Assembly: GCA_963667755.2 (NCBI GenBank)
Contig: CAXXLK010000001.1
Location: 1,501,862-1,565,861 of the forward strand
Direction: 5' to 3'
Length of the DNA stretch: 64,000 nucleotides
DNA from: Desulfobacterales bacterium
GTDB taxonomy: Bacteria > Desulfobacterota > Desulfobacteria > Desulfobacterales > 4572-123
Shown: positions 23,231-54,825 of the stretch, in pieces
Position numbering within the stretch: the stretch's first letter is position 1
Layout: each line of letters starts with the position of its first letter
Translations under genes and position numbers: made by a program
The notes under the pieces: generated by a model
Databases searched by the model: none
The model's input: only the letters and a program-made list of their open reading frames with translations
What the model was told of the DNA's origin: nothing

Positions 23231-23311
23231 ATGACTTCAATGATCAACTACCTTGCAGACAGATTTTCTTATTATTATTTTTTTACCATCTGTCTGCCTG
23301 TGGTGCGCTGA
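23231..23311 (+). CDS. Candidate Tyr/Phe-rich leader peptide of the aromatic operon (26 aa)
   Basis: ATG 23231 to TGA 23309-23311 encodes MTSMINYLADRFSYYYFFTICLPVVR, with five consecutive aromatic codons TAT TAT TAT TTT TTT at 23270-23284. It lies about 125 nt upstream of a DAHP synthase gene and directly upstream of terminator hairpins. The Shine-Dalgarno is weak (AGG adjacent to the ATG). Confidence 0.55.
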   Translation: MTSMINYLADRFSYYYFFTICLPVVR

Positions 23312-23334
23312 AGGAGTCCAACCAAGCAAAGCAA

Positions 23335-23370
23335 AAGCCGCGGCAGACAAAGCCCGCGGCTTTTTTATTT
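23335..23370 (+). terminator. Attenuator terminator 1 in the aro leader
   Basis: AAGCCGCGG (23335-23343) pairs with CCGCGGCTT (23354-23362) across a 10-nt loop, followed by TTTTTTATTTT. There is no upstream plus-strand gene for it to terminate. Confidence 0.65.
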
Positions 23371-23373
23371 TGA

Positions 23374-23417
23374 AAGGGCCGCGGGAGGCGAAAAACTTCC
23401 CCCGGCCCTTTTGCTTT
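23374..23417 (+). terminator. Attenuator hairpin/terminator 2 in the aro leader
   Basis: A GC-rich stem anchored by GGGCCG (23376-23381) / CGGCCC (23403-23408), followed by TTTTGCTTT. Its 5' arm GCCGCGGG (23378-23385) is also perfectly complementary to CCCGCGGC (23353-23360) of terminator 1. Confidence 0.55.
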
Positions 23418-23436
23418 CCCCAAAAAGGAGAGTACC

Positions 23437-47933: not shown

Positions 47934-48086
47934 TGTTTGATGAACTCGTAAAAAGTCGAGTTTAGACGGTCTTGTAAAAAGTTCAAATTCAAGGCGCGCA
48001 AATTTTGTAATCATGAGGCGTAACCATCGTACGTTGAATGATTGCGAAATGCAGCGTAAGGCAGGAGTTGGACTTTTTACGAGATT
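47934..48086 (-). repeat. MITE-like element copy 3 (47968-48086, inverted) with adjoining module 2 (47934-47966)
   Basis: GGTCTTGTAAAAAGTTCAAATTCAAGGCG...GGACTTTTTACGAGATT is the reverse complement of copy 1. TTTGATGAACTCGTAAAAAGTCGAGTTTAG is the reverse complement of 17142-17176. Confidence 0.85.
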
Positions 48087-48163
48087 GTCATGTTTAAATA
48101 TTAACATTTTCGGGAATTTTAACAAAATAGTTGGACAACACAGTCCCTTATACAAAAGTCTGT

Positions 48164-48304: not shown

Positions 48305-48420
48305 GTGTTCAAAAATTAAAATTCAAGGCGTTTAAATTTTGCAATCATGAGGCGTAGCCATCGTACGGTGAATGATTACGAAATGCAGCGCAACGCAGGA
48401 GTTGGAACCTTTACGAGACC
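48305..48420 (-). repeat. MITE-like element copy 4 (inverted; one terminal repeat degenerate)
   Basis: ...ATTCAAGGCGTTTAAATTTTGCAATCATGAGGCGTAGCCATCGTACGGTGAATGATTACGAAATGCAGCGCAACGCAGGAGTTGGAACCTTTACGAGACC. Confidence 0.8.
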
Positions 48421-48439
48421 GTCAAATTATTGGAAGATC

Positions 48440-51550: not shown

Positions 51551-52354
51551 ATGTCACATATCAATAATCCCATGGAAATTTTTAAGTTGTTAAATGGCTC
51601 TAACTGTAGAGAATGTGGTGAAAAAACCTGTCTGGCATTTGCAGTGGCCGTGTTTAAGGAAAAAAAACCGATACATGCGTGTCCTTATTTGGAAAAAGAA
51701 GTGATTGATCGGTATGGGGGGGCAATTGAGAAACCCAATACCGTTGATGAATATAAAGCAGAAGCCATTGAAGAACTAAAACAGAAGATATCTTTAATTG
51801 ATTTTTCCGAAGCAGCCAAACGCATGGGCGCTAAGGTTTTTAACAATAAACTGACCATAAAGATTTTTGGTAAAAAGTTCAGCGTTGATGCCAGGGGCAA
51901 CCTGTCATCTGAAGTTCATATCAATGCATATATGGTCGTGCCGGCACTGAACTATATTTTGAACGGATCGGGTAAATCTCCGCAGGGGAATTGGATCACC
52001 TTCCGGGAGTTGACCGGCGGGCCTTCCCGATATGCTCATTTTCAACAACGTTGTGAAAAACCGTTAAAGCGGCTTGCCGATACCTATACGGATTTCTTTA
52101 AAGATATGTTGGAAATTTTTGATGGAAAAGAAATCGTCAGTCAGATTGACTCAGATGTTTCAATTGTTTTGTATCCCCTGCCTCTTTTTCCGATAATGGT
52201 TTGCTACTGGAGACCGGAAGATGGCCTTGAATCCAGTCTGCATATCTATTTTGATGCTGCATCTGATGATAATCTTGACATTGAATCCAACTATACGCTT
52301 AATGAAGGCGTTGCTTTGATGTTTGAAAAGATCGCCTTGCGGCATGGTGCTTAA
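51551..52354 (+). CDS. DUF3786-like protein with N-terminal putative Fe-S cluster motif
   Basis: The N-terminal CRECGEKTCLAFAVAVFKEKKPIHAC resembles the PF04060-type CxxCGxxxC...C motif. The remainder has the size and composition of DUF3786 proteins. Confidence 0.55.
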   Translation: MSHINNPMEIFKLLNGSNCRECGEKTCLAFAVAVFKEKKPIHACPYLEKEVIDRYGGAIEKPNTVDEYKAEAIEELKQKISLIDFSEAAKRMGAKVFNNKLTIKIFGKKFSVDARGNLSSEVHINAYMVVPALNYILNGSGKSPQGNWITFRELTGGPSRYAHFQQRCEKPLKRLADTYTDFFKDMLEIFDGKEIVSQIDSDVSIVLYPLPLFPIMVCYWRPEDGLESSLHIYFDAASDDNLDIESNYTLNEGVALMFEKIALRHGA

Positions 52355-52469
52355 TAAAAACGTATAGGGCAAAAGGCGAGCGGTCTAAAAATCGAGATGG
52401 TTGCACTTGACAGGCCCTTAAAGGGTGTGTTACCAAAAGACCATTACGTACCAACCAAAGGGCATTCAA

Positions 52470-52556
52470 ATGAACACAGCACAAACAGCCGGTCGTCTAT
52501 TTTATTGTTTTTTTCGCTTCTTTTTTAGCTTTAGAAGCGTCCATCTGGTTGTTTAG
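52470..52556 (+). CDS. Candidate Phe-rich leader peptide of the aroF-pheA operon (28 aa)
   Basis: ATG 52470 (AAGGG about 8 nt upstream) to TAG 52554-52556 encodes MNTAQTAGRLFYCFFRFFFSFRSVHLVV. There are 7 Phe and 1 Tyr in 11 consecutive codons (52500-52532). A hairpin cascade and terminator follow. Confidence 0.65.
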   Translation: MNTAQTAGRLFYCFFRFFFSFRSVHLVV

Positions 52557-52580
52557 CGCGTTTTCTCGATCGTAAAATAC

Positions 52581-52609
52581 CCGGGTGGACCCAATCAAGA
52601 TCCACCCGG
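52581..52609 (+). promoter_or_regulatory. Attenuator hairpin (segments 2:3) of the pheA-type leader
   Basis: CCGGGTGGA (52581-52589) pairs perfectly with TCCACCCGG (52601-52609). Each arm has an alternative partner (52540-52548 and 52627-52635). Confidence 0.55.
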
Positions 52610-52623
52610 AACATGGTTATCAA

Positions 52624-52665
52624 GGCTCCGGGAGGAAAATTTTCCGGGGCCTTTTTTTATTTTCG
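52624..52665 (+). terminator. Attenuator terminator of the pheA-type leader
   Basis: GGCTCCGGG (52624-52632) pairs with TCCGGGGCC (52643-52651), including two G-U pairs, followed by TTTTTTTATTTT. Confidence 0.7.
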
Positions 52666-52818
52666 AAAGATGACGCTCTTGTAAAAAGTCAAAAAAATGT
52701 GCTTTTGTAATTTTCCACTTAATAATATCAGCCGGTTATAGAAACGAAAAACGGAAATTCCGACTTTTAGCGAGAGCATCAAAGATAGAGACACACCCAA
52801 TAACACAAGGATGGACAA

Positions 52819-53691
52819 ATGAAAAATCTCAAACTAGCTTCCCGGACCGCAAAAACACGCACGGTGGTCAAGGTTTCCCAGATAAGCGTCGGCAAGGATC
52901 TGGTGGTGATTGCCGGCCCCTGCAGTGTGGAAAGTGAGGCGCAGACCCTTGAAACCGCCCGTGCGGTCAAACGGGCAGGGGCCGACATGATTCGCGGCGG
53001 TGCCTTTAAACCGCGCACTTCCCCTTATGCCTTCCAGGGGCTGGGACTCGAGGGGCTCAAGATTCTGGAAAAGGCCAGTCGGGAAACGGGCCTGCCCATT
53101 GTAACGGAGGTGCTGGACCCCCGGGACGTTTCCTGGGTGGCCGAATTTGCCGATGTCCTGCAGATCGGTACGCGCAATATGCAGAATTATTCCCTGCTCC
53201 GGGAGGTGGGGCGGGCCGGCCGGCCGGTGCTGCTCAAACGCGGCATGTATTCCACCCTGGAAGAATGGCTCAACTGCGCCGAGTACATCCTCAGTGAGGG
53301 CAACCCGGACGTTATTCTGTGTGAACGCGGTATTCGCACCTTTGAAAAATACACACGCAACACCCTGGATCTGAGCGCCGTCCCGGCCCTTCGAGAACTG
53401 ACCCACCTGCCCATCATCGTCGACCCGACCCACAGCACCGGCCGGCTCAGCCTGATCGGGCCCATGAGTCTGGCCGCTGTGGCGGCCGGTGCGGACGGAC
53501 TGATTATCGAGGTCCACAACAATCCTGAAAAGGCCCTTTGTGATGCGGACCAGGCTTTGACCCCGGTGATGTTTGCAGATATCATGCGGCGCCTGCGGCC
53601 CCTGAAAACCTTTATGGACCAGAGTGCCGGGAAGCCGGATGATTCAGTGCACGGACATTCGGGACCTGAAAATACCCGAAACGTAGAATGA
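52819..53691 (+). CDS. aroF: DAHP synthase, class I-beta (AroF/KDO8PS-like type)
   Basis: [48 protein letters not shown] and [10 protein letters not shown] are class I-beta motifs. Confidence 0.88.
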
Positions 53692-53760: not shown

Positions 53761-54825
53761 ATGAATCTTTCTGAAATCAGAAAAAATATCGACAAAATAG
53801 ACCGTGAATTGCTGGTATTGCTTCAAGAGCGCATGGGAATGGCCCTTCGTTCAAAAAAATTCAAACAGGCTGTCAGCGATCCCGAGCGGGAGGAAAATAT
53901 GCTGGCGCGAATTGAGCGACTGAACCTGGATCTCATGGATCGTCCTTTTACCCGGCATTTGCTCAAAACCATCATTGCGGAAAGCAAACGGCTTCAGGAG
54001 GAAGATCGGCCTCTTGTGGCGTTTCAGGGCGAACACGGCGCCTACGGCGAAGTGGCTTCCCGCCAACTGGTCCCGGGGGGGGCCTACATCCCGTGTATGG
54101 AATTCAACGATGTTTTCCAGGGGGTTGAAAAAGGGCATTTCGATCTGGGGGTGGTGCCGGTGGAAAATTCTCTGGAAGGTGCCGTCACCCAGGTGAACGA
54201 TTTGTTGACCACAACTAACTTAAAGGTCATCGGGGAGACAAAAGTGGCCGTGATGCACTGCCTGCTGGCTACCGCTGATACGGATTACCGTGAAATACGG
54301 CAGGTCTACTCCCATCCCCAGGCCCTGGCCCAGTGCCGTGGTTTCTTGAATCGCAACAAGCTGGAGCCCCGACCCTATTATGACACCGCCGGCGCTGCTA
54401 AAATGCTGGCCCGTGAAAATCCAAGGGCCGCGGCGGCCATTGCCAGTTCGTTGAGTGCTGAACTGTATAACCTGGAAATTATCAAGAGTGGCATCGAAGA
54501 CGGCGTGTCCAATTCAACCCGGTTCCTGTTGCTTTCCCGAAAGCCTTGCGTGGACCGTGGCGAAAAAACATCCATTATTTTTATCACAGCCCACGAGGCC
54601 GGGCAATTGTACCGGGTGCTGCGTCTGTTTGCTGAAGCCGATATCAATTTGTCCCGCATCGCGTCCATGCCCCTGCGTACAGATCCGGGCAATTACAGTT
54701 TTTTCCTGGATTTTGAAGCCTCTGAACAGGAAGAACGGGCCGCAGCCGTGCTCCGGAAGATGGGGGAAATGACCATCTCCTTAAAATGTCTGGGCAGCTA
54801 CCCGGCGGACCGGGCACTGGTTTGA
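53761..54825 (+). CDS. pheA: Bifunctional chorismate mutase / prephenate dehydratase (P-protein)
   Basis: N-terminal CM_2 (LSEIRKNIDKIDRELLVLLQERM), PDT domain (VAFQGEHGAYGEVA...VPVENSLEGAV...YSHPQALAQC) and C-terminal ACT domain (TSIIFITAHEAGQLYRVL...NLSRIASMP). Confidence 0.9.
   Translation: MNLSEIRKNIDKIDRELLVLLQERMGMALRSKKFKQAVSDPEREENMLARIERLNLDLMDRPFTRHLLKTIIAESKRLQEEDRPLVAFQGEHGAYGEVASRQLVPGGAYIPCMEFNDVFQGVEKGHFDLGVVPVENSLEGAVTQVNDLLTTTNLKVIGETKVAVMHCLLATADTDYREIRQVYSHPQALAQCRGFLNRNKLEPRPYYDTAGAAKMLARENPRAAAAIASSLSAELYNLEIIKSGIEDGVSNSTRFLLLSRKPCVDRGEKTSIIFITAHEAGQLYRVLRLFAEADINLSRIASMPLRTDPGNYSFFLDFEASEQEERAAAVLRKMGEMTISLKCLGSYPADRALV

Follow-up and report, generated by a model that had tools for sequence, protein, structure and literature searches.

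The aroF-pheA leader region

We analysed a 64,000-nucleotide (nt) stretch of a Desulfobacterales genome (assembly GCA_963667755.2, contig CAXXLK010000001.1, positions 1,501,862 to 1,565,861 of the forward strand), referred to here as the window, with positions counted from its first letter. Near position 52,500, the window contains a short phenylalanine (Phe)-rich open reading frame (ORF) followed by a chain of complementary RNA segments and an intrinsic terminator, upstream of genes for a class I-beta 3-deoxy-7-phosphoheptulonate (DAHP) synthase (aroF) and a chorismate mutase/prephenate dehydratase (pheA). A preliminary description, made from the sequence alone, had proposed that this region is a five-segment attenuator strongly resembling E. 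coli pheL. From the sequence and its comparison with relatives, we consider it very likely that the element belongs to the class of ribosome-mediated Phe leader-peptide transcription attenuators, acting on aroF(I-beta)-pheA. Its features are as follows, all on the plus strand:

52407-52435: putative sigma-70-type promoter (-35 TTGACA at 52407-52412, 17-nt spacer, weak -10 TTACCA at 52430-52435)
52457-52462: Shine-Dalgarno-like AAAGGG (AAGGG at 52458-52462), 7 nt 5' of the leader ATG
52470-52556: leader peptide ORF of 28 codons (ATG at 52470, TAG at 52554-52556), peptide MNTAQTAGRLFYCFFRFFFSFRSVHLVV
52500-52532: regulatory Phe codons of the leader ORF (F11, F14, F15, F17, F18, F19, F21)
52515-52539: hairpin A:B over the Phe codons, CGCUUCU (52515-52521) with AGAAGCG (52533-52539)
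52539-52548: segment 1 (B'), GUCCAUCUGG, in the final leader codons; its partner is segment 2
52550-52579: variable spacer hairpin inside the 1:2 helix, beginning around the stop codon
52579-52590: segment 2 (C), ACCCGGGUGGAC; pairs with segment 1 (read-through) or segment 3 (termination)
52601-52610: segment 3 (D), UCCACCCGGA; pairs with segment 2, or with segment 4 as antiterminator
52622-52636: segment 4 (E), AAGGCUCCGGGAGGA; 5' arm of the terminator, or partner of segment 3
52640-52663: segment 5 (F); 3' arm of the terminator, UUUUCCGGGGCCUU (52640-52653), and U-tract U7AU4 (52652-52663)
52664-52818: A+T-rich non-coding spacer of 155 nt, from the terminator to aroF
52819-53691: aroF-type DAHP synthase, class I-beta, unfused, first regulated gene (NF006421, 437.9 bits; TIGR01361, 399 bits; PF00793)
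53761-54825: pheA, chorismate mutase/prephenate dehydratase/ACT (P-protein), second regulated gene (CM_2, PDT and ACT domains; NF008865, 233.7 bits)

The leader ORF has the start, the Shine-Dalgarno sequence, the 28 codons and the Phe-rich character first attributed to it, and the family and domain matches confirm the identification of the two downstream genes as aroF(I-beta) and pheA. Codons 11-21 of the ORF comprise seven Phe codons and one tyrosine (Tyr) codon, and in all six frames of the window no stop-free stretch of 11 codons outside the leader has at least seven Phe codons. The parts that define the attenuator class are present at the locus. The 5' leader of its biosynthetic operon has a short ORF that could be translated, with its own start codon and ribosome-binding site; codons for the amino acid that the pathway makes are clustered in this ORF (seven Phe in 11 codons, ahead of DAHP synthase and P-protein genes); an intrinsic terminator separates the ORF from the first structural gene; and a predicted antiterminator excludes the terminator, as helices 3:4 and 4:5 share segment 4.

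Helix 1:2 has seven Watson-Crick and two G-U pairs, 2:3 is a perfect 9 base pairs (bp), and 4:5 is a stem of 13-14 bp (52622-52653) followed by T7AT4, which is called by the terminator scan. Segments 1 to 5, these two pairings and the terminator all lie where they had originally been placed. The 3:4 pairing also exists, but its register had been set one base off: UCCACCCGGA (52601-52610) pairs with UCCGGGAGGA (52627-52636) at 9 of 10 positions. The five segments of the original chain are real, but the count was incomplete, as it overlooked both the spacer hairpin and a hairpin with a sixth segment over the Phe codons. The loop of this A:B hairpin contains Phe codons, and its 3' arm adjoins and overlaps segment 1; it is predicted at -8.3 kcal/mol in the window and at -8 to -16 kcal/mol in orthologs, most of which have a 10-bp version (GGACGCUUCU with AGAAGCGUCC). 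We read the design as one of six segments with a topology like that of hisL (discussed below), because the extra conserved A:B hairpin competes with segment 1.

The predicted energies of the remaining helices in the window are -21.8 (1:2), -17.7 (2:3), -12.0 (3:4) and -20.3 kcal/mol (4:5). RNA folding, which the preliminary description had put forward as a check, is consistent with the model: the 241-nt leader has a folding energy of -74.2 kcal/mol (z = -4.3), with none of 200 shuffled sequences as stable, and the predicted alternative helices form. When nine sequences were folded helix by helix, all five helices formed in each of them. The spacer hairpin is found at the same position, with differing sequence, in the nine orthologs folded.

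Distribution, conservation and covariation

An AroF protein scan of species-representative genomes and metagenome contigs gave 160 loci (designated by L numbers). The closest are from Desulfobacterales or Desulfobacteraceae metagenome-assembled genomes, with AroF proteins 75-85% identical to that of the window. Clearly homologous leaders were found in nine loci when aromatic-rich small ORFs were sought within 600 nt upstream of aroF. A covariance model, R1, built from the 2:3 hairpin and the terminator, matches RNA in 15 loci with AroF in this range of identity (52-86 bits), plus a copy truncated at the end of its contig (26 bits); a further 466 kb, from 90 aroF loci that are more distant, gave no match. 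Six close relatives in which the 600-nt ORF search had found no leader proved not to lack one: R1 locates it further upstream, before an inserted gene. In six related loci, this gene, encoding a pair of ACT domains (PF19571 ACT_8, 147-159 residues), lies between leader and aroF (L001, 1043-1486; L005, 2035-2493; L081, 270-713; L083, 1476-1919; L087, 1487-1930; L104, 1401-1880). No ACT_8 gene was found anywhere in the 64-kb window.

The leader ORF is present in orthologous regions wherever the upstream sequence sufficed (14 complete leaders and two cut by contig ends). The leader is missing from one close relative, L082, in which another gene lies upstream, and in two further close relatives the upstream sequence is too short to judge its presence. 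The genes aroF-pheA lie downstream of the element at every locus of sufficient length, with pheA after aroF in 14 of 14, whereas the upstream genes differ between loci, and the uvrA and DUF3786 genes of the window are upstream of the leader in no relative. Because the upstream genes vary and aroF-pheA is constant, the element belongs to the aroF-pheA operon.

This distribution bears on a different explanation of the locus, in which the hairpin and U-tract form an ordinary terminator, belonging to the DUF3786 gene upstream or to an independent small RNA, and the Phe-rich ORF is a by-product of T-richness with no link to aroF-pheA. The T-rich character of the region would fit this explanation, as would the strength of the terminator on its own, the 155-nt spacer before aroF and a promoter scan without a site at the leader. 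However, in 15 loci, all without DUF3786 or uvrA upstream, the element accompanies aroF-pheA or ACT-aroF-pheA; a conserved TTGACA lies between upstream gene and leader; the ORF is conserved in frame, Phe codons and stop position while the N-terminus and the identity of the stop codon vary; and the density of Phe codons is unique in six frames of 64 kb. We regard an ordinary terminator or independent small RNA as highly improbable.

In the 14 complete orthologous leaders, TTGAC(A) is found 55-63 nt 5' of the start codon in 13, and transcription in the window would start at about 52442-52445. The leaders are 25-28 codons long with 4-8 Phe codons, and begin with ATG (13) or GTG (one). A Shine-Dalgarno-like motif lies 4-13 nt 5' of the start in 12 of the 14, and none was found for those of L088 and L089. 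The stop codon is exactly 5 nt 3' of segment 1 in every case, although TAG, TAA and TGA are all in use. With the Phe codons preceding segment 1 by 7-39 nt, this geometry would suit control by ribosome position.

All 14 leader peptides share the C-terminal end G-R-F-F-F-S-F-R-S-V-H-P-x-x-stop; the N-terminal half and the last two residues are not conserved. Such strong conservation is unusual in a leader peptide, and could point to a functional hydrophobic micro-protein, or to an arrest peptide whose ...FRSVHP tail stalls the ribosome independently of the supply of tRNA-Phe. Against this, the conserved tail codons all lie in arms of RNA helices (A, B or segment 1), and substitutions in the tail are often non-synonymous yet preserve pairing, as with AGC to GGC or UGC (Ser to Gly or Cys) and AGA to AAG (Arg to Lys); a further pair-preserving change, CCG to CUG, is present in the window copy itself. 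In the unpaired loop, Phe codons are retained with synonymous UUU/UUC changes, but the Ser codon is not (Ser, Leu, Gly or Arg). Since the non-synonymous changes keep base pairing, constraint on the RNA rather than on the peptide best explains the conservation of the tail, judging from the substitutions; with the unconserved ends of the peptide also speaking against a micro-protein or arrest peptide, we give either very little credence.

Base pairs were counted on A6, an alignment of 14 sequences in which the six segments, registered by hand, are joined without gaps by fixed linkers; the MAFFT alignments (A1-A3) and the model-fitted A5 misplace segment 4 in several rows and were left out of these counts. 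In the termination structure, 92.4% of cells are paired, compared with 38-56% when the 3' partners are slid, and both partners have changed in six pairs, of which five belong to E:F. In the read-through structure, 86.6% of cells are paired (100% for B:C), and the D:E core is mostly paired, with two doubly changed pairs. The covariation score of the termination structure is above all 500 shuffles and that of the read-through structure is reached by one of 500, in controls that overstate significance because the 14 sequences are related.

The clearest case of covariation involves segments 3, 4 and 5. Position 52606 in segment 3 is U in nine sequences and C in five, and its segment 4 partner is A in seven and G in seven; the D:E pair 59-84 is U-A in seven, C-G in five and U-G in two. 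The segment 5 base opposite the same segment 4 position is again U in nine and C in five, and the E:F pair 84-100 is A-U in seven, G-C in five and G-U in two. Hairpin A:B is paired in 96.4% of cells, with changes of the wobble type only, and CCGGGUGGAC within segment 2 is invariant in 15 sequences. Because A:B, B:C and C:D overlap coding or invariant segments, their support comes from conservation, not from compensatory change. The comparative alignment that the preliminary description had suggested is favourable to its model: Phe codons, helices, terminator and stop position are kept in the 14 complete leaders, and segments 3, 4 and 5 co-vary. The parts of the element, their conservation, their covariation and the existence of alternative predicted folds are established by sequence and comparison.

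Predicted operation of the switch

In the mechanism that we propose, transcription of aroF(I-beta)-pheA would be set by the supply of charged tRNA-Phe, and would begin probably about 25 nt 5' of the leader ORF. Two sets of helices would compete: a termination set, consisting of A:B, C:D (2:3) and E:F (4:5, the intrinsic terminator), and a read-through set, consisting of B':C (1:2, enclosing the spacer hairpin) and D:E (3:4, the antiterminator). When Phe is scarce, the ribosome would stall on the FFxFFFxF codons and occupy arm A, leaving segment 1 ahead of it free to capture the newly made segment 2; segment 3 would then take segment 4 before segment 5 is made, resulting in read-through. When Phe is plentiful, the ribosome would reach the stop codon and cover segment 1, such that 2:3 forms, segment 4 is left to segment 5, and transcription terminates at about 52658-52663. 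Without translation, A:B would sequester segment 1, and termination would be expected as well.

Predicted folds were compared with and without a ribosome. In the masked folds the nascent RNA was cut just before segment 5 and the stall mask reached 13 nt past the A-site codon, with assumed footprints. With the ribosome masked on the FFF run, B:C and D:E form in 12 of 14 sequences; with the ribosome masked at the stop codon, C:D forms without D:E in 13 of 14. The free full-length RNA adopts A:B, C:D and E:F in all 14. Together with the conservation and the co-varying segments 3, 4 and 5, these masked folds support at the sequence level the switch originally proposed, in which stalling at Phe codons gives 1:2 and 3:4 and a ribosome at the stop codon gives 2:3 and 4:5.

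Several points weigh against this reading. Two sequences (L083 and L104) favour C:D even under the stall mask, and one (L103) favours D:E with the ribosome at the stop codon. Full-length equilibrium folds give the terminator whatever the ribosome mask, and D:E (-12.0 kcal/mol) is weaker than E:F (-20.3 kcal/mol). In the comparative data, A:B, B:C and C:D vary by one-sided, wobble-type changes only, the relatedness of the sequences inflates the shuffle controls as noted above, and the register of segment 4 was taken from the terminator fold, to the advantage of E:F. The consensus promoter scan calls no site at the leader, because the -10 is weak. Finally, a second promoter in the 155-nt spacer could bypass the attenuator. 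ORF and promoter scans found neither a notable ORF nor a promoter-like match in this spacer (52664-52818); in most orthologs the interval between terminator and aroF is only about 25-40 nt, or holds the ACT_8 gene.

As the terminator forms in every equilibrium state, read-through must be a kinetic effect, and the folds imply that it would depend on the antiterminator forming first, as in other attenuators. We infer the ribosome footprints, the kinetic order of folding, the use of the promoter and the response to Phe, and hold the detailed six-segment relay with somewhat less confidence than the mechanism class.

Alternative helices and a terminator are shared by all mechanisms of this kind, including those in which a real switch is set by a trans-acting factor: uncharged tRNA-Phe in the manner of a T-box, a TRAP- or PyrR-like RNA-binding protein, or a small molecule bound by a riboswitch. 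The ACT-domain-pair gene directly behind the leader in six relatives encodes a possible amino-acid sensor and would suit such a mechanism, but the window locus has the leader without the ACT gene. In neither the window nor 16 related loci does any Rfam family, T-box and other riboswitches included, reach its gathering score, and the conserved bases are those of the helix arms and the Phe codons, with no conserved unpaired site for a ligand or tRNA. The conserved start codon, Shine-Dalgarno motif, reading frame and fixed stop are explained by translation only, and control by a trans-acting factor is in our view very unlikely.

Known attenuators and a second leader in the window

The pheL attenuator of E. 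coli precedes the gene for chorismate mutase/prephenate dehydratase and is regulated by charged tRNA-Phe. The window element shares this logic, with a leader ORF rich in Phe codons and a competing antiterminator and terminator. E. coli pheL, however, folds as two hairpins from four segments, as opposed to six segments and a spacer hairpin, and its leader has 15 codons rather than 28. In the window the class I-beta DAHP synthase gene, as the first regulated gene, stands between the leader and pheA, unlike in E. coli, where pheA directly follows the leader. The Rfam model RF01859 (Phe_leader) does not match 52350-52830 at E values up to 10 (gathering threshold 55 bits), and scores 132.3 bits on E. 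coli pheL as a positive control; R1 scores pheL at 11.8 bits. The strong resemblance to pheL that had been claimed holds for the logic of the switch; given the lack of an RF01859 match and the low R1 score, it does not extend to homology or architecture.

E. coli pheL is a precedent from the literature (PMC3082878), and a single sentence there mentions a possible pheL in Desulfobacterium autotrophicum, giving neither sequence nor structure nor any comparison. The window leader lies about 1.3 kb upstream of pheA, before aroF, and can be likened to the D. autotrophicum pheL by this mention only. Experimental evidence for Phe-limitation response comes from Corynebacterium glutamicum aroR-aroF, where a leader with Phe-Tyr-Phe precedes a DAHP synthase gene (Neshat et al. 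2014, summarised in PMC11802643; also PMC4046766); it is from another phylum and has a different leader peptide with far fewer regulatory codons. We compare the two by function only. Lists in PMC1173090 also give predicted attenuators ahead of aromatic operons.

In topology, the element matches the histidine (His) operon leader, which is also the sole Rfam model to respond in a permissive search. In hisL of Salmonella and E. coli, A:B over the regulatory codons, C:D and the E:F terminator are opposed to B:C and D:E, which give read-through. The window element is alike in this respect, with a three-hairpin termination fold and alternative B:C and D:E helices. Rfam RF00514 (His_leader) scores 27.1 bits (E = 0.011-0.021), below its gathering threshold of 49, such that the element is not a member; the three hairpins of the model align with the spacer hairpin, C:D and E:F, with the spacer corresponding to model hairpin 1. 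The window leader has one His and seven Phe codons with aroF-pheA downstream, unlike hisL with its His codons and his operon, and the likeness to His_leader is most likely convergent. Going by these model searches, the element is one that works like pheL, belongs to neither Phe_leader nor His_leader, and is uncatalogued in Rfam. It is a genuine, conserved case of textbook ribosome-mediated attenuation, which will not surprise a specialist.

A second leader is present in the window:

23231-23420: second leader-peptide attenuator, ORF MTSMINYLADRFSYYYFFTICLPVVR, three Tyr codons followed consecutively by two Phe codons

The preliminary description had pointed to this leader as a second instance of the same design, and a three-hairpin design is indeed found there (folding z = -6.0): a 10-bp hairpin (GCAGACAGAU/AUCUGUCUGC) encloses the Tyr/Phe codons and is followed by two hairpins, each with a U-run. 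Its match to R1 is weak (28.3 bits). It lies upstream of aroG(I-alpha)-aroB-aroE-aroA-aroK-aroC-tyrA.

At the aroF-pheA leader, 11 of 14 orthologs (L001, L002, L004, L005, L083, L086, L087, L088, L089, L103 and L104) have at least five U among the 8 nt that come after C:D, giving this middle hairpin the look of a first terminator before the main one; the counts are lower in the window copy (three) and L090 (two). The middle hairpin of the 23231 leader likewise has a U-run behind it. A simple terminator scan of two relatives, L001 and L089, does not call C:D because its loop exceeds the 8-nt limit of the scan. We put forward tentatively, as a variant that is possible and rather doubtful, that the stalled ribosome defeats two successive terminators via relayed antiterminators, and that this design is used twice with different codon sets. 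If true, B:C would block terminator 1 and free D, and D:E would block terminator 2; the DAHP synthase isoenzymes would then be under amino-acid-specific transcriptional control without a TyrR-type repressor.

Aromatic-rich leader ORFs not homologous to that of the window were observed before aroF(I-beta) homologs of distant lineages (L006, L007, L019, L020 and L096; L014, L021, L094 and L095; L092 and L093). Examples include ...NFFYYFSFSY..., ...GYYYYFWFRG... and ...FYTYFYFWA, and L014 and L021 each have two near-identical units of a hairpin and a U-run. On this evidence from sequence, attenuation of class I-beta DAHP synthase appears to have arisen repeatedly. Five loci (L006, L007, L010, L019 and L020) have a bacterial-type aroF with 71-76% identity to that of the window, in bins labelled Micrarchaeota or 'uncultured archaeon', and a leader-peptide-like ORF is present in four of these five contigs (not L010). 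These contigs may be mis-binned or mislabelled.

Elsewhere in the window, a repeat of about 115-140 nt is present in four copies with 86-90% identity:

47951-48090: repeat copy
48311-48424: repeat copy
17158-17015, minus strand: repeat copy
40219-40093, minus strand: repeat copy

Two of the four copies are in tandem just 5' of uvrA, and the repeat has no Rfam match at the gathering level. The start of the long uvrA ORF (48347) falls within a repeat copy, so the true start of uvrA is probably further downstream.

The aroF-pheA leader leaves the general understanding of attenuation unchanged, and its value is in annotation and comparison: a conserved non-coding region is explained, the operon can be defined as leader-(ACT)-aroF-pheA, and a covariance model with a 15-sequence seed is available for an RNA family missing from Rfam 15. 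The Phe leader and the Tyr/Phe leader at 23231 suggest that two DAHP synthase isoenzymes are under amino-acid-specific attenuation, and the element extends leader-peptide attenuation of the aromatic pathway to the sulfate-reducing Desulfobacterales, a group in which gene regulation is poorly charted.

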